DNA of 7,984 nt from IMG/VR virus record IMGVR_UViG_2850808358_000006, positions 1-7,984 of that record. One strand, written 5' to 3'. The stretch comes from a virus (taxonomy: Duplodnaviria; Heunggongvirae; Uroviricota; Caudoviricetes). How positions within the stretch are numbered: the first letter of the stretch is position 1; each line of letters opens with the position of its first letter. The translations under genes and the position numbers were made by a program. Under the pieces are notes generated by a model that was given only the letters and a program-made list of their open reading frames with translations, had not been told where the DNA came from and ran no database searches. This document shows, piece after piece, positions 1 to 7,984 of this stretch.

Positions 1-57
1 GGTGCTGTCCTGTAAAGCAATGCGCCTGCGTTCCTCAAACTATGGCGCTGATAGTGG

Positions 58-363
58 CTATTCCTGCTCTTTGACCTTGCGTCGCTGGAGTTCTTCACGC
101 GCGACGGTGACGAGTTGCCCGATCTCCTCGGCGGCTTTGACTCCGATTTTTTCCACCTGCGCTAGGGCATCGAGCGAAGAAACCAGGAGGTTTTCTCCGC
201 TTCCTTCTGCCTGGCGGCGGGCGATTTCACCGCGCATGGCGGTTACTATGAATCCGGCGTTGCTTTCACCGTCCAGTTTTACGGATTCCATGCCTTCAAT
301 AACATCATGCGGGATCCGAGCTGTCAGTGATTGTGATTTTGCGTTTTTTGAACCTGTAGCCAT
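58..363 (-). CDS. ribbon-helix-helix (CopG/Arc-like) DNA-binding protein; candidate repressor divergent from the replication operon
   Basis: Minus-strand ORF (track 58..378, TTG start). I prefer the internal ATG at plus 363-361 because a GAGAGG Shine-Dalgarno lies 6-8 nt upstream (plus 369-377). The N-terminus SLTARIPHDVIEGMESVKLDGESNAGFIVTAMRGEIARR fits a beta-strand/helix/helix RHH pattern by eye. No database search run. Confidence 0.55.
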   Translation of the reverse strand: MATGSKNAKSQSLTARIPHDVIEGMESVKLDGESNAGFIVTAMRGEIARRQAEGSGENLLVSSLDALAQVEKIGVKAAEEIGQLVTVAREELQRRKVKEQE

Positions 364-379
364 CTGTAATCCTCTCAAT

Positions 380-465
380 GAAAGTGTAAGACAATATACA
401 CATAAAAAGTCTTACATAAAAGCATTGACATGTAAGCCACCTATAAATAAAGTTACTTACACCTT
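380..465. promoter_or_regulatory. divergent promoter/operator region: TTGACA (425-430), 17-bp spacer, TAAAGT (448-453), with two inverted-repeat operator candidates
   Basis: Inverted repeat 1: TGTAAGAC (385-392) and GTCTTACA (409-416), 16-bp spacer. Inverted repeat 2: TGTAAG (431-436) and CTTACA (456-461), bracketing the spacer and -10 of the rightward promoter. Lies between the divergent RHH gene and the plus-strand operon. Confidence 0.5.
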
Positions 466-559
466 GTTAATGCAAGGTGCAGAAACGACGAAACCCCGCA
501 CTGTAGGAGCAGTAACGGGGCTTCTAACCACCAACGATAGCAAGATTATCGAGGCAGCT

Positions 560-763
560 ATGAGAAATCATACCATACACCCGCAAGGGCGGGACTCGTA
601 CAACCTGAATAAATACATCTGGCGTTTTATCGCCCTGAGCACCGCACAACCGCGCGTGATTCACATCGTGGCCACCAGCGAACAGGAAGCACGCCAGCAA
701 TCCCCGGCTGGCTGCGTGATGGTATTCGCCGCCCGTATTCGTCAGGGGGTGTGCCATGCCTGA
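560..763 (+). CDS. hypothetical small protein (67 aa), first gene of the rightward operon
   Basis: ATG at 560 preceded by GAGG (551-554). Its stop TGA 761-763 overlaps the next start ATG 756 (ATGCCTGA), suggesting translational coupling. This is the C-terminal part of track ORF 2..763. No recognisable motif. Confidence 0.4.
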   Translation: MRNHTIHPQGRDSYNLNKYIWRFIALSTAQPRVIHIVATSEQEARQQSPAGCVMVFAARIRQGVCHA

Positions 764-1076
764 TATGTCAAATTACCAGTACCTGATTAATCCGCATTTT
801 AACTGTGAGCATGATATTGCTAAAAAGATTTATTCCGCTGCGGATGGGGCTACTGACAATATATCAATGGCTGTTGCGTCAATTGGTAGCCTGATGTGGC
901 ATGCGTCAGAAAATGAGGACTATGACGAAAAGGCCATGCGCATTGATATGGGTAATATCGGTTTGTTACTGGCAATGCTTGGACATTTTGATATTTCGTT
1001 ACGGTGCACCATTGAAAATGCCACAGATGCATTAAATGCTATAAAGAAAGCGAATACTGATTCAAATCGGGGATAA
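756..1076 (+). CDS. hypothetical protein (106 aa), AT-rich accessory-like gene
   Basis: Track ORF 756..1076. GGGGG run (745-749) 6 nt upstream of the ATG; overlaps the upstream stop. Visibly lower GC than flanking genes (by eye, not computed). No recognisable motif. Confidence 0.55.
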   Translation: MPDMSNYQYLINPHFNCEHDIAKKIYSAADGATDNISMAVASIGSLMWHASENEDYDEKAMRIDMGNIGLLLAMLGHFDISLRCTIENATDALNAIKKANTDSNRG

Positions 1077-1082
1077 ATAATC

Positions 1083-1382
1083 ATGAGAACGTATTTATCT
1101 GGCTTGACTGCCAGCGGTTATGCACACCCCCAAATTATCCCCGGCGCTATTTATCTGGATAAGAACGGTAACAGAGTAACGGTAAAAGAACTGATGTTTG
1201 ACCGTGTGTATTTTATCCGTGATGGCTATTCATTTCTTAGTTCGCTGAACGTGGAGATCTTTATTAGCAGATTCAGGCGGGAAATCCCGCTTTCCAGAAA
1301 TAACCATGTGTCATGTATGGATGTTGATAAAAAACTACAGGAACTAAAAAACATGATTGCCGCGTGGAGAGAGCAGAAATGA
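1083..1382 (+). CDS. hypothetical protein (99 aa), AT-rich accessory-like gene
   Basis: Track ORF 1083..1382. Stop TGA 1380-1382 overlaps the primase ATG 1379-1381 (ATGA), suggesting coupling. Lower GC by eye. No recognisable motif. Confidence 0.55.
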   Translation: MRTYLSGLTASGYAHPQIIPGAIYLDKNGNRVTVKELMFDRVYFIRDGYSFLSSLNVEIFISRFRREIPLSRNNHVSCMDVDKKLQELKNMIAAWREQK

Positions 1383-2500
1383 AAAAAGCGCCAAATTTAA
1401 AACACCAGCCGCGTGACAAAATGACGGAAGTCATCATTTTTGCGGGTAGTGATGCGTGGGCACATGCGAAACAGTGGCAGGAACAGGACGGGCGACTGGC
1501 TGGCGATAACGTGCCACCTGTCTGGCTTGGAGAGCAACAACTTGCCGAACTGGACAACCTGCAAATCGTACCGGACGGACGCTATCGCGTGCGTCTCTAT
1601 CAGGCGGGGTTATTGCGTCCGGGGCTTGTTAATACCATCGGGCAGAAACTGGCAGTGGCAGGTGTCAGGGATGCTGATTATTACCCTGAAGGAATGCACA
1701 GCCAGAAACGGGAGAACTGGCGCGAATATCTGGAACGTGAACGGGCAGAGCAGGCGGAAAAGAAAAAGGTAGTTGAACTGCCTGTAAAGAAAAAAGAGCC
1801 ATGCTATCAGGATGATGAATTAAAGCCCCGCGTTGAAAGTCGCGTCGATGGTGTTTTCTGGGTAACGCCCAAAGTGGATAAGCAGTCAGGCGAAATTATC
1901 CGGCCTGAGACGTGGTTATGTTCTCCGCTTGAACTACTGGGAACGGGGACGATCGGTAAAGAGCATTACCGCGTGATGCGCTGGAAAAAATTAGCAAACC
2001 ATGAAGTCATCACAATGGCGATCCCGTGTGGTGGCATTGGCGACCGTGACGGCTGGCGGTTGCTTAAAGATCACGGGCTGAACGTGACAACAAACGGCAA
2101 ATACAGGGCTATCCTGGCTGACTGGATGCAGTTAAGCGGAAGCCATGAGGAATGGCAGCTAAGCACAACAACGGGCTGGCATTTTGGCGCGTATATCATG
2201 CCGGACGGCTCAATCATTGGTGATTCTGAAAAACCGATCCTGTTTACCGGAAAAAGTGCCGCTGTTAATGGCTATTCGGTTGCGGGTACGGCGGAGGGCT
2301 GGCGCGACTGCGTGGCGCGGCTGGCTGGTGGCAATCCGTCCATGATGCTGGGTGTTGCCACGTCACTGGCAGCACCTTTGATTGGCCTTGTTGGTGCTGA
2401 CGGCTTCGGGTACATCTTTTCGAACAGTCATCGGCAGGGAAAACCACCACGCAGAACATCGCATCAAGTTTATGGGGAGAGCCGGACGCACAACGGCTGA
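1379..2500 (+). CDS. primase-helicase, N-terminal fragment (Toprim-like primase region); reading frame breaks near 2411-2416
   Basis: Track ORF 1364..2500 (GTG). I prefer ATG 1379, preceded by GGAGAGAG (1366-1373). Toprim-like segment TEVIIFAGSDAW ... RDADYY by eye. The frame-2 tail after about 2413 (IFSNSHRQGKPPRRTSHQVYGESRTHNG) looks like out-of-frame translation because the conserved helicase motifs continue in frame 1. Confidence 0.6.
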   Translation: MKKAPNLKHQPRDKMTEVIIFAGSDAWAHAKQWQEQDGRLAGDNVPPVWLGEQQLAELDNLQIVPDGRYRVRLYQAGLLRPGLVNTIGQKLAVAGVRDADYYPEGMHSQKRENWREYLERERAEQAEKKKVVELPVKKKEPCYQDDELKPRVESRVDGVFWVTPKVDKQSGEIIRPETWLCSPLELLGTGTIGKEHYRVMRWKKLANHEVITMAIPCGGIGDRDGWRLLKDHGLNVTTNGKYRAILADWMQLSGSHEEWQLSTTTGWHFGAYIMPDGSIIGDSEKPILFTGKSAAVNGYSVAGTAEGWRDCVARLAGGNPSMMLGVATSLAAPLIGLVGADGFGYIFSNSHRQGKPPRRTSHQVYGESRTHNG

Positions 2501-2601
2501 CCTGGTACGGCACAGCGTTAGGTATCGCTAACGAGGCAGAGGCGCACAACGACGGGCTGTTACCCCTGGATGAAATAGGCCAGGCCGGAAACGCGCGGGA
2601 G

Positions 2602-3501
2602 GTGTCCACGTCAGCCTATACGTTGTTTAACGGTTCCGGGAAATTACAGGGGGCGAAGGACGGCGGCAACCGGGAGATAAAACACTGGCGCACGGTGGCA
2701 ATCAGCACCGGAGAAATGGACGTTGAGACATTCCTCAAAACGGAGGGGATAAAAGTCAAAGCGGGGCAGCTTGTCCGCCTGCTTAACGTTCCGATGGAAA
2801 AAGCCACGCACTTTCACGAATACAGCACCGGAAAGGCGCACGCAGACGCGTTAAAGGATGCCTGGACAGAAAATCACGGGGCAGCGGGTCGTGAGTGGGT
2901 TAAATGGCTGGCAGGCCACCAGCAGGAGGCAAAGGATACGGTAAGGGAATGCCGCGAACGGTGGCGCAACCTGATACCGGAGAGCTACGGCGAGCAGGTC
3001 CACCGCGTGGGTGAGCGTTTCGCCATACTGGAGGCCGCGCTTGTGCTTTCCTGTCATGTAACTGGCTGGGCCGCGCAGGAATGCCGGGACGCAATACAGC
3101 ATAACTTTAATGCCTGGGTGAAGGAGTTCGGCACGGGTAACAGGGAATTTAAACAGATGGTTGAACAGGCTGAGGCGTTTTTGTCGTCGTTCGGGTTCAG
3201 TCGATACCTTCCTTACCCAAACAGTGATGAACGTGATTTACCGATTAAAGACCTTGCCGGATACAGAAAGGGGAGTATCAGAAATGAAGATGATGAGTTC
3301 CGTTTTTACACGTTTCCTCATGTGTTTGAGGGGGAGATCGCACAGGGATTTAACCCGTCCCACTTTGCCCGCGCGTTGAGTGCTGCCGGAATGCTGGAAG
3401 CGGGTAACGATCGCCGTTACAAGAAAAAGGCTCTCGGCAAAATTGGGGGGAAGCAGCATGTTTTTTACGTGCTGATGTTCCAGCCTGAGGCAGAAGATTA
3501 A
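2602..3501 (+). CDS. primase-helicase, C-terminal fragment (SF3/D5-like or DUF927-like helicase); homology extends upstream to about 2413 in the same frame
   Basis: Track ORF 2602..3501 (GTG). My manual frame-1 translation from 2413 gives HLFEQSSAGKTTTQNIASSLWGEPDAQRLTWYGTALGIANEAEAHNDGLLPLDEIGQAGNAREV, with Walker A (GKTT) at 2437-2448 and a Walker B-like LLPLDE at 2557-2574, then running into the track ORF. This means the two fragments are one gene split by a frameshift. Confidence 0.6.
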   Translation: MSTSAYTLFNGSGKLQGAKDGGNREIKHWRTVAISTGEMDVETFLKTEGIKVKAGQLVRLLNVPMEKATHFHEYSTGKAHADALKDAWTENHGAAGREWVKWLAGHQQEAKDTVRECRERWRNLIPESYGEQVHRVGERFAILEAALVLSCHVTGWAAQECRDAIQHNFNAWVKEFGTGNREFKQMVEQAEAFLSSFGFSRYLPYPNSDERDLPIKDLAGYRKGSIRNEDDEFRFYTFPHVFEGEIAQGFNPSHFARALSAAGMLEAGNDRRYKKKALGKIGGKQHVFYVLMFQPEAED

Positions 3502-3523
3502 CCCCCTGTGTGAGGTGAAAAGT

Positions 3524-3840
3524 TGCGGGTTATGCGGGTTACTCTGTGTATAAGTGCATTAACTGCATGAATAAAAAGGAAATCAATAACCCGCACGTAA
3601 CCCGCAAAACGGCAGTTATAACCCGCAAAAGTGCGATTATAACCCGCAGATGAATAACAGGAAGTGACAGCAAACAGCCACGCGTAACCCGCAGAAAAAA
3701 AACCGTTTGCGGGTTATTTTGAGCATTTTGCGGGTTACGCCACGGCTAAACAGTAAACAGTTAATTTTGTAATGTATTGATATTAAGGAATAAAAAATAC
3801 TTAGCAAGCGAAGATAACCCGCTAACCCGCATAACCCGCA
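3524..3840. repeat. iteron array (9-mer TAACCCGCA / TGCGGGTTA, about 12 copies) around an AT-rich core; putative origin of replication
   Basis: Reverse copies at 3524-3532, 3533-3541, 3708-3716, 3729-3737. Forward copies at 3587-3595, 3598-3606, 3619-3627, 3640-3648, 3685-3693, and three tandem copies across 3814-3840. AT-rich stretch about 3740-3812. Sits immediately 3' of the helicase gene, as in SaPI/PICI-type origins. Confidence 0.7.
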
Positions 3841-3879
3841 CTGTTTTGTATATATATACGAAAAATTGAGATCTGAACT

Positions 3880-4122
3880 ATGAAGGCAAACCGCAAACAA
3901 CCACACTACCGCGCTATTGACCTTACAGAGCACTGGCTGAGAGTGGCGATAAAAATCATCGACCGAAACACGGGGGAAGGATATGCAAAAGCACATCCCG
4001 AACTGATAAGCGCATTCATGACAACGGCAGCTGCAAACTTTGCCACGTTGACAGAACGGGAGATTGCCGAAGCGGAACAGGTAACAACCATCAACGTTAA
4101 AACCGGAGAGCAGACAGCATGA
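3880..4122 (+). CDS. hypothetical protein (80 aa)
   Basis: Track ORF 3880..4122. Stop TGA 4120-4122 overlaps the SSB ATG 4119 (ATGA). Weak Shine-Dalgarno. A TATATATA box (about 3849-3858) immediately follows the last iterons. Confidence 0.5.
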   Translation: MKANRKQPHYRAIDLTEHWLRVAIKIIDRNTGEGYAKAHPELISAFMTTAAANFATLTEREIAEAEQVTTINVKTGEQTA

Positions 4123-4541
4123 CAGCACAGATAGCGGCTTACGGGCGGCTGGTGGCTGACCCGCAGTTAAAGACCACCAGCAAGGGTACACAAATGACGA
4201 TGGCTAGTATGGCGGTACCCCTTCCGTGCAGCCAGGCAGATGACGGAACGGCGACGATGTGGTTATCCGTCCTGGCGTTTGGCAGACAGGCCGACGCACT
4301 GGCAAAACACCACAAAGGCGAACTGGTGAGCGTGGCGGGTAACATGCAGGTAAGCCAGTGGACAGGCCAGAACGGCGAAACGCGGCAGGGCTGGCAGGTT
4401 ATCGCAGACAGCGTAATCAGTGCGAGAACGGCGCGACCGGGCGGAAAAAAAGGCCAGCAGGGGCAGGCTACTGACGCACTGAACAGGGCAAAACAACAGG
4501 CGGGTAACGATGATCCGTACGGGGATAACATACCGTTTTAA
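4119..4541 (+). CDS. ssb: single-stranded DNA-binding protein (SSB family, short form, 140 aa)
   Basis: OB-fold pattern similar to E. coli SSB by eye: MWLSVLAFGRQADALAKHHKGELVSVAGNMQVSQWTGQNGETRQGWQV compared with [43 protein letters not shown]. Gly/Gln-rich linker and C-terminal tip DDPYGDNIPF, matching the conserved SSB protein-interaction tail that ends in IPF. Confidence 0.8.
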   Translation: MTAQIAAYGRLVADPQLKTTSKGTQMTMASMAVPLPCSQADDGTATMWLSVLAFGRQADALAKHHKGELVSVAGNMQVSQWTGQNGETRQGWQVIADSVISARTARPGGKKGQQGQATDALNRAKQQAGNDDPYGDNIPF

Positions 4542-4556
4542 ACAACGAGTAACAGA

Positions 4557-4579
4557 AGCCGGAGAAGTCCGGCTTTTTT
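4557..4579 (+). terminator. rho-independent terminator after ssb
   Basis: Stem AGCCGGA (4557-4563) and TCCGGCT (4568-4574), loop GAAG, followed by a T-run through 4579. Confidence 0.75.
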
Positions 4580-4585
4580 ATGCCC

Positions 4586-4626
4586 AAAAAAAGCCCGATA
4601 AGGTCAGAGGGTCTTATCGGGCTTTT
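4586..4626. terminator. second hairpin, bidirectional-terminator-like (A-run, 11-bp stem, T-run)
   Basis: A7 (4586-4592); stem AGCCCGATAAG (4592-4602) and CTTATCGGGCT (4613-4623); 10-nt loop; TTTT (4623-4626). Confidence 0.55.
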
Positions 4627-4707
4627 GCATATGAGGCTTTTATCTAACAGTATGGTAACTACTGTTGTCGGAGATAATTTCATAATTTGCAACACAACTC
4701 AACATTA

Positions 4708-4764
4708 TTGCGTAAAATGAAATCATGATTATAATCACAACTGGATGAACATCCAGTTGTGATT
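4708..4764 (+). promoter_or_regulatory. candidate promoter of the capsid operon (TTGCGT -35, perfect TATAAT -10 at 4730-4735) overlapped by a perfect 15-bp palindrome
   Basis: AATCACAACTGGATG (4733-4747), 2-bp centre, CATCCAGTTGTGATT (4750-4764), then TTTT. The palindrome begins inside the -10 hexamer, so it is either an operator for a dimeric regulator or an RNA hairpin. Confidence 0.45.
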
Positions 4765-4791
4765 TTTAACGTCAAAGAGGAATTTCCGACT

Positions 4792-4998
4792 ATGGCAGAA
4801 GAGAAAAAAGGCGGGGTGACAGTTTACATAAGCCCAGACATCGTGGAGGCGCTCAGGGAACGCCACCAGCAGAACGTAAAAGCAGGCATTGCGGCAGGAC
4901 TTGATCCGCTGGCGATGGTTGAGCCGTCAACAGGCTGGCAGGTACGCGCCTATTTACGCGCGGCGCTGGGCATGAATCAGACGCATGGAGGTGAATAA
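4792..4998 (+). CDS. hypothetical small protein (68 aa) preceding the major capsid gene
   Basis: Track ORF 4759..4998 (GTG). I prefer ATG 4792 with AAGAGG (4775-4780) upstream. Stop TAA 4996-4998 overlaps the capsid ATG 4998 (TAATG). Function unknown; a scaffold or regulatory role is speculation. Confidence 0.45.
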   Translation: MAEEKKGGVTVYISPDIVEALRERHQQNVKAGIAAGLDPLAMVEPSTGWQVRAYLRAALGMNQTHGGE

Positions 4999-6053
4999 TG
5001 GCAGGCAAAGCAACGGCACTTAACACTAACCAGCTTTTCGCGTACCTGAATCGCGGGGATATTGCGGAATTTAAATTCAGTCCGCTGTTTACCACGCTGT
5101 TTTTCCCGAACGTGGCGACATTCAACACCCAAAACATCATGCTGGACACCCTGGACATTGAAGAGGTTACGATGTCGGCGTTTTGTTCGCCTATGGTGGG
5201 TAGTCAGGTCCAGCGCGATAAAGGGTACGAAACCAGCACGATTAAACCTGGATACATGAAGCCGAAGCACGAAATCGATCCAACGAAAACCATCATGCGT
5301 ATGGCTGGAGAAGATCCGGCACAGCTTAATGACCCAACCTATCGCCGTATGCGCCTGATTACTGGCAACATGCGCCGCCAGATAAACGCCATTAAGGCAC
5401 GCGTGGAATGGCTGGCGGTGAATGCGATAACGACCGGAAAAAACATCATTGAGGGCGAAGGCATAGAACGCTATGAAATAGACTGGAAGATCCCAAGTAA
5501 AAATATCGCCAGACAGGGACCGGGTAAAAAGTGGTCAGAGGCAGATAAGGAAACACACGATCCAATCTATGACATCGAGCTTTATGCTGATCAGGCTGGT
5601 TGCCCCGCAAACGTCATGATTATGGGCGCTGAGGTATGGCGCACGTTACGCAGCTTTAAAAAATTCCGTGAGCTGTACGATCTTTCCCGTGGTTCAGAAT
5701 CCTCCGCCGAACTGGCCTGTAAAAACCTGGGCGAAGTGGTGAGCTTTAAAGGCTATCTGGGCGATATTGCCCTTATCGTCTATTCCGGCAAATACGCCGA
5801 CAGCGACGGCACAGAAAAATATTTCCTTGAACCTGATTTGCTGGTCCTGGGCAACACCAACAATAAAGGGCTGGTGGCCTATGGTGCGATTATGGATCAG
5901 GACGCAGTAAGAACGGGGGCAACGCAAAACATGTACTACCCGAAAAACTGGATTGAGGACGGCGATCCGGCGATTGAGTACGTGCAGACGCACAGCGCAC
6001 CGCAGCCGGTTCCGGCAGATATTCGCAAATTTGTTACTGTCAAAATTGCTTAA
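4998..6053 (+). CDS. major capsid protein, phage lambda gpE family (351 aa)
   Basis: Colinear with lambda gpE by eye along the whole length. Examples (window vs lambda): FKFSPLFTTLFFPN vs FKFDPLFLRLFFRE; KPGYMKPKHEIDPT vs TPGYVKPKHEVNPQ; DPTYRRMRLITGNMRR vs DPAYRRRRIIMQNMRD; FKGYLGDIALIVYSGKY vs YKGMYGDVAIVVYSGQY; VLGNTNNKGLVAYGAIMDQDA vs VLGNTQARGLRTYGCIQDADA; YYPKNWIEDGDPAIEY vs RYPKNWVTTGDPAREF. GGAGGTGA Shine-Dalgarno at 4987-4994. Confidence 0.9.
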   Translation: MAGKATALNTNQLFAYLNRGDIAEFKFSPLFTTLFFPNVATFNTQNIMLDTLDIEEVTMSAFCSPMVGSQVQRDKGYETSTIKPGYMKPKHEIDPTKTIMRMAGEDPAQLNDPTYRRMRLITGNMRRQINAIKARVEWLAVNAITTGKNIIEGEGIERYEIDWKIPSKNIARQGPGKKWSEADKETHDPIYDIELYADQAGCPANVMIMGAEVWRTLRSFKKFRELYDLSRGSESSAELACKNLGEVVSFKGYLGDIALIVYSGKYADSDGTEKYFLEPDLLVLGNTNNKGLVAYGAIMDQDAVRTGATQNMYYPKNWIEDGDPAIEYVQTHSAPQPVPADIRKFVTVKIA

Positions 6054-6064
6054 CGGGGGATTCT

Positions 6065-6400
6065 ATGGACACTCCATACATTGAGTTATTTGCAGGCAGC
6101 CAGCAGGTATCCACGACGCTGGTACATTTTGCCGCTGATGCTGGCGTTATTCAGGAATTTACCCCGCTGATGCTGGCGGACAATGGCGAGTTTAAGGCGT
6201 GGGATGGTCAGGAATCTGGCAAGGCTGTTTATCTGACCTCGTACCCCGTGGACACGTCGACGCAGAAATCAGCACAGTGTTACAAGACGGGGATATTTAA
6301 TATCGCCGCCGTTAACTGGCCTGAGAGCGTCGACACCGACGCGAAAAAATGCGCCGCCTTTGCGGGTTCTGGTGTATCTGTTCAGCCGCTGGCGCGATAA
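6065..6400 (+). CDS. head decoration protein, phage lambda gpD family (111 aa)
   Basis: By-eye alignment with lambda gpD: TPLMLADNGEFKAWDG vs TPLMLDTSSRKLVAWDG; YKTGIFNIAAVNWPESVDTDAKKCAAFAGSGVSV vs [40 protein letters not shown] Shine-Dalgarno at 6055-6060. Confidence 0.85.
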   Translation: MDTPYIELFAGSQQVSTTLVHFAADAGVIQEFTPLMLADNGEFKAWDGQESGKAVYLTSYPVDTSTQKSAQCYKTGIFNIAAVNWPESVDTDAKKCAAFAGSGVSVQPLAR

Positions 6401-6413
6401 GCAGGGGGGAACG

Positions 6414-6827
6414 ATGGCAACGAATGAAAGTATCATGGCGCTACCGCTGGCGAGTAAATTTAAAGCTGAAGCGCGGGCAATGGCTGACAGATGTCTATCA
6501 ACCTACGAAGCTATATATCAACTTAACAAACTGGAAGAACAGGACAAGCCGCGCGCTGATGCGATTATGTCGCTTCATGAATCTGACGACTATCAGCCGC
6601 TGTTACGTGCAATGGCAAACGTGCCTTGTATTGATGTTGATACGGCTAAAAACATCCTGAACATGACCATAGAGCAGGAACGCCAGAAGGTTGCACCAGA
6701 GCTTACCGCAGCCTTTGAAAACTTTATGGACATGCACAGCCCACAAGCCGTATCAGCTGGCATGGCATACGATGGCAGAAACCCGGGCGATGACGGCGAC
6801 ATTGATCGCATACTGAAAACCATCTGA
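6414..6827 (+). CDS. hypothetical protein (137 aa), last gene of the capsid operon
   Basis: Track ORF 6360..6827 trimmed to ATG 6414, which follows a GGGGGGA run (6404-6410). Followed by a terminator. No recognisable motif; not obviously lambda FI or FII. Confidence 0.6.
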   Translation: MATNESIMALPLASKFKAEARAMADRCLSTYEAIYQLNKLEEQDKPRADAIMSLHESDDYQPLLRAMANVPCIDVDTAKNILNMTIEQERQKVAPELTAAFENFMDMHSPQAVSAGMAYDGRNPGDDGDIDRILKTI

Positions 6828-6833
6828 GACAAG

Positions 6834-6855
6834 GCCGGAGAAATCCGGCTTTTTT
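6834..6855 (+). terminator. rho-independent terminator after the capsid operon
   Basis: Stem GCCGGA (6834-6839) and TCCGGC (6844-6849), loop GAAA, T-run 6850-6855. Nearly identical in sequence to the terminator at 4557-4579. Confidence 0.75.
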
Positions 6856-6976
6856 GCGGGTCCTTTCCGGCATATGGACCTGTTACGGGGCGGCGACCTC
6901 GCGGTTTTTCGCTATTTATGACGTTTTTCCGTGAAGGTGACACCACCACCACTTGATTAACATTTAACCAGTTAAT
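6856..6976 (+). other. lambda-type cos site (cosQ-like 6858-6870, cosN cohesive-end core GGGCGGCGACCT 6888-6899, short cosB-like region)
   Basis: GGGTCCTTTCCGG ... GTTACGGGGCGGCGACCTCGCGGTTTTTCGCTATTTATGA matches the joined lambda right end and left end (GGGTCCTTTCCGGTGATCCGACAGGTTACG + GGGCGGCGACCTCGCGGGTTTTCGCTATTTATGAAAATTTTCCGG), recalled from memory. Downstream CGTTTTTCCGTG (6922-6933) resembles the lambda R3 element CGTTTCCGTTCT. Followed by CACCACCACC and the palindrome TTAACCAGTTAA (6964-6975), then the Nu1-like gene. Confidence 0.8.
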
Positions 6977-6988
6977 TGAGGTAACATT

Positions 6989-7423
6989 ATGATTGATAAG
7001 ACTTGTTTTGTAAGTCAGCAGGAAATAGCTGAACATTTCAAGGTAAACAGAACCACTATTCGCGCATGGACCAAACAGGGGATGCCGTATCTTAATGCGG
7101 ATCGCGGAAAGTCCGGCGGTTATCACATCGGGCATACATTGCTTTGGTCTTCAGGTAAAAGCCATCTTGAGGCCATTGGATATCACGTAGAAACCAGTGC
7201 GCTGGAAAAAATTATGGTTGCCAGGCTGCTTTCATCTGAGCGTGACGAGTACTCCAGTGAAGAAACAGAACATCGATTTGATGAAGGTTTGCAGATTTAC
7301 GGCTATTCACCGGAAGATGTGAGCAAAGCACGAAATAAAATGGCTGGCTTTCTGGCTGGGTGGCGTCATGCAGTAAGCGTTCGCCGTGCCAGCATGGAGC
7401 AATCAGCCGATACCGAACAGTAA
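6989..7423 (+). CDS. Nu1-like small terminase subunit homologue (winged-HTH DNA-binding domain), 144 aa; possibly a packaging-redirection (Rpp-like) factor
   Basis: N-terminus QQEIAEHFKVNRTTIRAWTKQGMPYL matches lambda Nu1 KKQLADIFGASIRTIQNWQEQGMPVL by eye. About 35 aa shorter than Nu1. No large-terminase gene follows. TGAGGT Shine-Dalgarno at 6977-6982. Lies directly downstream of the cos site. Confidence 0.75.
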   Translation: MIDKTCFVSQQEIAEHFKVNRTTIRAWTKQGMPYLNADRGKSGGYHIGHTLLWSSGKSHLEAIGYHVETSALEKIMVARLLSSERDEYSSEETEHRFDEGLQIYGYSPEDVSKARNKMAGFLAGWRHAVSVRRASMEQSADTEQ

Positions 7424-7479
7424 AGCCGATAACTTGTTAATCACTCGCAGCAATGCGTGTGATTTGTGCACACTTTCGG

Positions 7480-7670
7480 TTAACTGGTTCGATGTCCGGT
7501 TTTAGTGTCTGTTTTTTGCGCATGTCCGGTTCATGGAAAGCATGTTTTTGTATTTTTCATATAGTTAACTTGAAGAGAAGCCGGACATGGCTCCTGGAAA
7601 ATTTTCATAAATAGCGAAAACCCGCGAGGTCGCCGCCCCGTAACGGGCCATAATTCCAGGAAGGACCCGA
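7480..7670 (-). other. second cos-like site in inverted orientation (cosN core on the minus strand at 7627-7638, cosQ-like at 7656-7668, cosB-like region with three ATGTCCGG-type repeats)
   Basis: The reverse complement of 7594-7640 reads CGGGGCGGCGACCTCGCGGGTTTTCGCTATTTATGAAAATTTTCCAG, near-identical to the lambda cosN left flank. Repeats ATGTCCGG at 7492-7499 and 7522-7529 and the inverted CCGGACAT at 7581-7588 occupy positions like lambda R1/R2/R3, with an AT-rich stretch between them. TTAACTGGTT (7480-7489) mirrors the palindrome in the first cos site. Confidence 0.65.
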
Positions 7671-7702
7671 CGACACCAGACTATCAGAACGATGGGGGCA
7701 CA

Positions 7703-7984
7703 ATGACAGAAGCCGAAATACTGGGATTAATCCGTCGCGTTACCGGAATCAGCCAGCAGGCTGACGAACAGACCACGCAGCCGGACAGCGTGACAGCCGA
7801 AAACTATGCGCGTGTTGTGGCTGAGGTGATGCGCCGTGATGGTATTGAGCTTAACGGCGAGGATATGCGCAACATACGAACCAGAGTTCTCGGGTTGTTG
7901 TCATACCGTCGCCGTTCTCAACAACGGAGGGAGAGCGCGAAAAATACTTACCAGTGGAAGAAGCCGGAACGGCTGCGGCGGTAA
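7703..7984 (+). CDS. hypothetical protein (93 aa)
   Basis: Track ORF 7703..7984. GGGGG run at 7694-7698 upstream of the ATG; stop TAA at the window end. Basic C-terminus (RRRSQQRRESAKNTYQWKKPERLRR). No recognisable motif. Confidence 0.5.
   Translation: MTEAEILGLIRRVTGISQQADEQTTQPDSVTAENYARVVAEVMRRDGIELNGEDMRNIRTRVLGLLSYRRRSQQRRESAKNTYQWKKPERLRR

Follow-up and report, generated by a model that had tools for sequence, protein, structure and literature searches.

A probable rppA allele between two inverted cos sites of an EcCICFT073-family island

The gene at positions 6989-7423 of the window, by which we mean the whole 7,984-nt stretch of DNA analyzed here, is very probably rppA, the "redirecting phage packaging" gene of a cos-type PICI of the EcCICFT073 family. 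An earlier, sequence-only reading had proposed an Rpp-type packaging-redirection factor at this position, and its functional idea is right; at 97% identity to RppA and 43.65% identity to RppC, the product would be such a factor, and it is a near-identical allele of a protein that is already known, so that the finding is not new. A 2019 publication had already described what the gene product does, its partner, its DNA target, and its structure; the present gene is one more allele, which opens no new question. Its value is for annotation, where RefSeq, Pfam, and NCBIfam leave the RppA-type protein either "hypothetical" or without a family. What our analysis establishes directly is the identity of the protein, its DNA-reading residues, the cosB of the adjoining cos site (cos1), and the gene context.

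The gene, its product, and the Rpp family

The gene and the parts of its product are as follows.

6989-7423, + strand: probable rppA coding sequence, 144 aa and stop (ATG at 6989; the stop codon ends at 7423)
6978-6981, + strand: Shine-Dalgarno GAGG, 7 nt 5' of the rppA ATG, read from the sequence
6989-7180, + strand: N-terminal winged-HTH (wHTH) DNA-binding domain, residues 1-64, with limits taken from the RppC structure; predicted to mimic the TerS DNA-binding domain
7181-7420, + strand: C-terminal helical dimerization domain, residues 65-144, with a long last helix and without a TerL-binding domain; aligned to RppC residues 65-127

The 144-aa open reading frame proposed by the earlier reading is real, with the GAGG ribosome-binding site 7 nt before its ATG. 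To identify the product, we compared it with the CFT073 protein WP_000565609.1, to which it is identical at 140 of 144 positions (97%) over the full length (144/144). WP_000565609.1 is encoded by the CFT073 gene at the matching island position, is likewise 144 aa long, and is annotated as a "hypothetical protein"; the island concerned, EcCICFT073 of E. coli CFT073, was matched at 92.9% identity (megablast, query 6800-7984). The EcCICFT073 gene c1503 has been reported to encode RppA, a protein of 144 residues (Fillol-Salom et al. 2019, PMC6739421), and the CFT073 gene agrees with both the RppA sequence (MIDKACFVSQQEIAEHFKVNRTTIRAWTKQGMPYLNADRGKSGGYHIGHT...) and the c1503 primers in the PMC6739421 supplement; in CFT073, RppA thus goes by c1503 and AAN79972.1 / WP_000565609.1. 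Among all PDB chains, RppC (6HLK; 6HN7) was matched by phmmer at E=8e-32 over residues 2-125, and the window protein shares 55 of 126 aligned columns with the RppC of 6HLK. The resulting identity of 43.65% is the value quoted in PMC6739421 for RppA versus RppC, and it comprises 51% identity in the DNA-binding domain versus 37% in the C-terminal part.

Relative to CFT073 RppA, the window protein carries four substitutions, namely T5A, H59R, G63R, and V77F (window residue first), all of which lie outside the recognition helix and the wing. Three of these window residues recur in relatives, with H59 and G63 present in the RppA-like protein P0001 and V77 in P0003, and the suggestion that the gene might be a distinct variant is not borne out. 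H59 and G63 are located in or near helix α3, which is part of the TerS interface in RppC.

A search of a 5.8-billion-protein collection found 17 relatives, which comprise E. coli proteins of 144-146 aa (84-93% identity), Klebsiella and Phytobacter proteins of 139 aa, and Salmonella proteins of 141-148 aa. All of them are "hypothetical" and without a Pfam domain, and the 146-aa E. coli forms at 84-85% identity are probably the published RppB type. In a 16-sequence alignment (Escherichia, Klebsiella, Phytobacter, and Salmonella), 55 columns are invariant. Among these, R21, T22, T23, R25, W27, and K29 of the recognition helix, as well as R39, G40, and K41 of the wing, are identical in 16 of 16 sequences, and further invariant residues are spread across the C-terminal half. 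Invariance along the whole length of Rpp argues for a selected, functional protein. At the megablast level, about 100 of the 5426 complete E. coli genomes carry DNA resembling rppA, without exception on the chromosome, and a tblastn search of RppA against 50,697 phage records returned no phage homolog.

The window protein thus shows the features of the published Rpp proteins: homology over its full length to RppA, along with the match to RppC; a size within 139-154 aa, with a wHTH and a helical dimerization domain and without a TerL-binding tail; R21/T22 and the other DNA-reading residues of helix α2 and the wing; a gene placed just 3' of an island cos in which a lambda-like cosQ/cosN is combined with a nonphage cosB; and a PICI (int, alpA, pri-rep) without its own terminase. 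A consensus scan for promoters and terminators in 6700-7750 gave no excess over shuffled sequence, and a 39-nt direct repeat (7064-7102 / 7392-7430, 72% identity) was taken as chance.

Domain architecture and relation to the small terminase

The dimerization role of the C-terminal domain is known from the RppC structures (PMC6739421). In the N-terminal domain, the recognition-helix residues R21, T22, R25, and K29 and the wing residues R39 and K41 are all present in the window RppA. An AlphaFold2 model built from the 16-sequence alignment was of low confidence (mean pLDDT 51, pTM 0.35), and a Foldseek search of this poor model against the PDB returned nothing at E<=0.001, without recovering 6HLK, which is uninformative because of the quality of the model. 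For a structural comparison we therefore rely on how well the sequence matches RppC, the structure of which is solved. The low-confidence model places helices at residues 10-16 and 21-29, strands at 36-38 and 46-48 (a β hairpin), and four helices beyond these, among them 71-85, 91-103, and the long terminal 108-143, and this order of secondary-structure elements agrees with RppC.

The function of RppA is known from published experiments. When c1503 is expressed by itself, lambda and phi80 are blocked, whereas HK97 is not (PMC6739421 / Penades-lab work), and escape mutations of the blocked phages map to terS (Penades-lab work). In the crystal structure of RppC with lambda TerS(1-98) (6HN7), the RppC wHTH fills the place of the second TerS DNA-binding domain, while the C-terminal helices of RppC both dimerize Rpp and contact TerS helix α3 (PMC6739421). 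RppA lowers the transfer of plasmids carrying lambda/phage cos and raises the transfer of plasmids carrying cos1, but not cos2, and cosB swaps locate the specificity in the cosB of cos1 (Penades-lab work). Moreover, an R21A/T22A RppA mutant keeps interference, whereas its cos1 packaging is lost (PMC6739421).

The mechanism has been established for the 97%-identical CFT073 RppA and for RppC, and it is carried over to the window allele by near-identity. Rpp would form a homodimer joined via its C-terminal helices, and its N-terminal wHTH would mimic the DNA-binding domain of a lambda-type TerS (gpNu1) and stand in for the second such domain of TerS, giving an Rpp2-TerS2 complex. The recognition helix, through R21 and T22, would then read the island-specific cosB of cos1, immediately 5' of rppA, and the free C-terminus of the captured TerS would recruit the helper TerL, leading to a cut at the lambda-like cosN of the island and to the entry of island DNA into helper capsids. 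By homology, we infer TerS binding, interference, and cos1 redirection for this allele as well.

The earlier reading had called the N-terminus "clearly Nu1-like" and the protein a truncated Nu1. The first description holds in part, in that the PHROG 57 "terminase small subunit" profile matched at E=5e-8, but over residues 8-46 only. A Pfam scan of RppA gave no match to Phage_Nu1 (PF07471) at E<=0.01, whereas a genuine phage Nu1 scanned likewise scores 67.9 bits, and the DNA-binding-domain chains of lambda and phage 21 TerS (1J9I, 7LW0, 7LWR, 7LXS, and 6HN7_B) were reached by phmmer in the PDB at no better than E=0.13-0.22. The second description fails, since the protein aligns with Rpp proteins over its whole length; its resemblance to TerS chains and PHROG 57 does not extend past residue ∼55, and the C-terminal half, which aligns with Rpp proteins alone, corresponds to the Rpp dimerization domain. 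Judged by sequence, the N-terminal wHTH of RppA is distantly TerS-like, but taken over its full length the protein is an Rpp rather than a Nu1 cut short. Descent from the Nu1 of PhiR12-type phages was considered and rejected (BLASTP E=0.05, 31 residues only).

We consider it very unlikely that the gene encodes an autonomous, shortened small terminase of the island, which would bind the island cos and recruit helper TerL without helper TerS. The PHROG 57 match, the position of rppA directly 3' of a cos (like Nu1 in lambda), and the name "terminase small subunit" given by PGAP to some related island genes are what such a protein would lead one to expect, but the features of a lambda-type small terminase are absent, namely the Phage_Nu1 match, similarity to TerS beyond about residue 55, a TerL-binding C-terminus, and an adjacent co-oriented terL. 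Rpps are described as being without a TerL-binding C-terminus (Murialdo and Feiss, PMC9026076). Further, deletion of phi80 terS abolishes EcCICFT073 transfer (Penades-lab work), which shows that helper TerS is required.

Pfam and NCBIfam contain no Rpp family model, and the only matches to their profiles were subthreshold and of a generic HTH kind, with HTH_17 at 17.0 bits (cut-off 27), MerR_1 at 16.4 (21.6), and NCBIfam BldC at 17.2 (77), besides HTH_36. Such matches could be expected of a MerR-, Xis-, or BldC-like HTH regulator of island or phage late genes, the packaging effects of which would be secondary; yet none reaches the curated cut-off that would place the protein among MerR/excisionase-type regulators, and they span only the ∼25-residue HTH. 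Since the terS escape mutants, the crystallized Rpp-TerS complex, and the cosB swaps all point to an effect on cos recognition, we regard a regulator as even less credible than an autonomous terminase, and an Rpp as the preferred reading.

The two cos sites

The cos features on either side of the gene are as follows.

6857-6930, + strand: cos1 core, with cosQ-like GGGTCCTTTCCGG (about 6858-6870), cosN, and the first ∼40 bp rightward; one arm of the inverted repeat
6888-6899, + strand: cos1 cohesive end (cosN) GGGCGGCGACCT, exact match; packaged island DNA is numbered from 6888 as its bp 1
6935-6952, + strand: candidate Rpp site "R3-PICI" AGGTGACACCACCACCAC, bp 48-65 from the nick, in the cosB of cos1
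7490-7669, − strand: cos2, the second cos, in inverted orientation; it comprises cosQ, cosN (cohesive end 7627-7638), and a cosB of phage type that bears three CCGGACAT boxes; its matches are L002 3501-3679 and L004 2501-2609
7581-7588, 7522-7529, and 7492-7499: CCGGACAT boxes of the cos2 cosB

The gene lies between two cos sites, as the earlier reading had it. The lambda cohesive end GGGCGGCGACCT occurs in exactly two copies in the window, at 6888-6899 (+) and 7627-7638 (−), as against 0.03 expected by chance, and two matches were found in none of 200 shuffles. Both copies are enclosed by a 74-nt inverted repeat (6857-6930 / 7596-7669, 84% complementary), and rppA is thus bracketed by two cos cores that face each other.

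The cos1 core is about 97% identical to the cos1 of EcCICFT073, and the island cosQ and cosN are known to resemble those of lambda and phi80 (PMC6739421 and companion paper). The rppA ATG lies at bp 102 from the cos1 nick (bp 1 = 6888), which is the spacing reported for PICI-C by Murialdo and Feiss (PMC9026076), who also proposed the Rpp site "R3-PICI" at bp 48-65. In the window, the cos1 cosB segment that includes bp 48-65 is 100% identical to that of CFT073. The cos1 cosB (6900-6990) had no match in the 50,697 phage records, which agrees with published work, where the cosB of the island is described as differing from that of the helper.

The "lambda-like R element" that had been seen in cos1 does not stand up to comparison with the lambda left end: CGTTTTTCCGT is not lambda R3 and, lying at cos1 bp 35-45, presumably corresponds to lambda bp 31-52, before R3. 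Upstream of cos1, a hairpin (GCCGGA-GAAA-TCCGGC, followed by TTTTTT) is located at 6834-6856, right after the 136-137-aa open reading frame and directly before the cosQ-like GGGTCCTTTCC. This hairpin resembles an intrinsic terminator, which would part the head genes from cos1-rppA, and it was not among the results of the consensus terminator scan.

The second cos site is 98% identical to the cos2 of EcCICFT073. In the published EcCICFT073 work, cos2 does not respond to Rpp, and transfer by lambda or phi80 does not need it. Two Penades-lab papers state that no phage cosB is identifiable in either island cos, in a comparison with lambda, phi80, and CFT073 phage 4 only. We found that cos2, read as the reverse complement of 7492-7670, shares about 90% identity across 179 bp with the cos of the phages PhiR12_1, _2, _2_star, _4, and _5, where this cos sits ∼50 bp upstream of the Nu1/A terminase genes. 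The alignment spans cosQ, cosN, and all three CCGGACAT boxes and breaks just past the third box. Counted from the cos2 nick, the boxes fall near bp 51-58 (inverted), 110-117, and 140-147, a spacing that we take to resemble the R3 / R2 / R1 layout of lambda cosB.

The "novel repeats" attributed to cos2 do exist, as ATGTCCGG copies at 7492-7499 and 7522-7529 and an inverted copy at 7581-7588, but they are not novel, being the cosB type of real lambdoid phages. Of the 5426 complete E. coli genomes, 1080 carry the cosB part of cos2 (median, two copies), and in the one O157:H7 prophage inspected, a cos2-type cosB lies ∼50 bp upstream of terS-terL. Sequence comparison thus identifies the cos2 repeats as R boxes that belong to a genuine cos of lambdoid phages, represented by the PhiR12 phages and the O157:H7 prophage. 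The 169-aa Nu1 of the PhiR12 phages matches Phage_Nu1 (Pfam) over residues 49-150 only, and its N-terminus shows no detectable resemblance to the DNA-binding domain of lambda TerS in the PDB, with no TerS chain among the matches even at E<=10.

Given its match to the PhiR12-type cos, cos2 looks like the native site of a lambdoid terminase with a third specificity. PhiR12-type helpers might escape capture by Rpp, in which case cos2 would permit direct, Rpp-independent packaging. We raise, as a tentative idea that is the less probable side of the question, that rppA flanked by inverted cos1 and cos2 could form a dual-specificity packaging module, with cos1 served by a lambda/phi80/21-type TerS captured by Rpp and cos2 by a third-class terminase without Rpp. 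The phage-type cos2 is the sole potentially new point of this work, and it could explain why these islands retain a second cos although lambda and phi80 can do without it.

The island and its relation to known systems

The window is 100% identical to GenBank CP026877.1 (assembly GCA_002950035.1) over all 7984 bases, and the same protein is encoded there. In that genome (locus L005), the island runs from an integrase gene through DUF6387, AlpA, small open reading frames, DUF4222, a split DUF927 primase, and an 80-aa open reading frame to SSB, a 68-aa open reading frame, capsid-E, decoration-D, a 136-137-aa open reading frame, cos1, rppA, cos2, and a 93-aa open reading frame. The remark that no terL follows the gene proved correct: neither terS nor terL is present in the window or in the whole island (CP026877.1), and chromosomal genes adjoin the 93-aa open reading frame. 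The first two chromosomal products carry the Pfam domains HK and Phos_pyr_kin, and the genes are apparently thiM/thiD-like. The structural and terminal genes are listed below.

4998-6053: lambda E-like major capsid protein (Pfam Phage_cap_E, E=2e-50)
6065-6400: D-like decoration protein (HDPD, E=9e-18)
6417-6827: 136-137-aa protein (PHROG 1999), weakly matching head maturation proteases in their C-terminal part (PHROG 53, E=3e-8)
7703-7984: 93-aa open reading frame (PHROG 1561, unknown function), the last island gene before the chromosome

The 136-137-aa protein of PHROG 1999 is possibly a Nu3-like scaffold. According to the 2018 paper, interference persists when either the capsid gene or the decoration gene is deleted, and small capsids are not formed. 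The 93-aa open reading frame had no Pfam or NCBIfam match. A "phage head-tail connector protein" appears among the features under the 6800-7984 match in one RefSeq genome.

The island is a mosaic. Its right half (4557-7984), which takes in everything from the capsid genes onward, shares 92.6-93.1% identity with the islands of CFT073 and 2014C-3307, and its left half (1-4580) is 82-87% identical and alignable only in part. The 4541-4759 gap contains no open reading frame that could be a counterpart of the PerC-family regulator gene that follows ssb in CFT073. In addition, the DUF927 primase/helicase gene (1364-3501) has lost 1 nt from a run of G near 2407, which splits it into open reading frames of 378 aa and 299 aa. 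The homolog in 2014C-3307 is intact, at 710 aa (L003 3944-6076), and CP026877.1 as deposited carries the split as well.

This split may be a real pseudogene, which would make the island replication-defective, or a homopolymer assembly error. If it is real, the island may not replicate, leaving redirection without DNA to package, and one can then picture an island decaying in this strain, in which rppA is kept only as an anti-phage interference gene that sequesters TerS, with no productive transfer. The intact gene in 2014C-3307 and the R21A/T22A mutant, which separates interference from redirection, fit with this picture. However, assemblies typically err in the length of homopolymers, so that the frameshift may not be real, and cos1 and rppA are fully intact. 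We judge decay to be improbable, though considerably less so than the terminase and regulator readings, and the protein mechanism would be unchanged either way, with the gene read as rppA.

Among the known systems, RppC shares with the window RppA the wHTH, the helical dimerization domain, and residues R21, T22, R25, K29, and K41, whereas it has 153 aa and its dimerization residues are poorly conserved relative to RppA. RppA and RppC do not heterodimerize (PMC6739421).

Lambda gpNu1/TerS (PF07471; 1J9I) resembles the window RppA in the wHTH fold class over the first ∼55 residues and in the placement of its gene 3' of cosB, and both proteins read a cosB element. However, gpNu1 is 181 aa long, as compared with 144 aa for RppA, the C-terminal domain of which is unrelated and without a TerL-binding region, and the two differ in their dimerization surfaces as well as in the DNA sequences recognized. 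EcCICFT073 has the same layout as the window island, with rppA between cos1 and an inverted cos2 and without terS or terL, but it is integrated next to phoQ and not next to thiM/thiD-like genes, and it encodes a 584-aa "DNA primase family protein" where the window island has the DUF927 primase. We know of no sequence relationship between Rpp and SaPI Ppi, which is likewise a small satellite protein that binds the helper TerS and blocks helper packaging. Ppi inhibits only, and its SaPIs supply their own TerS, whereas Rpp both inhibits and re-targets the TerS that it has captured.
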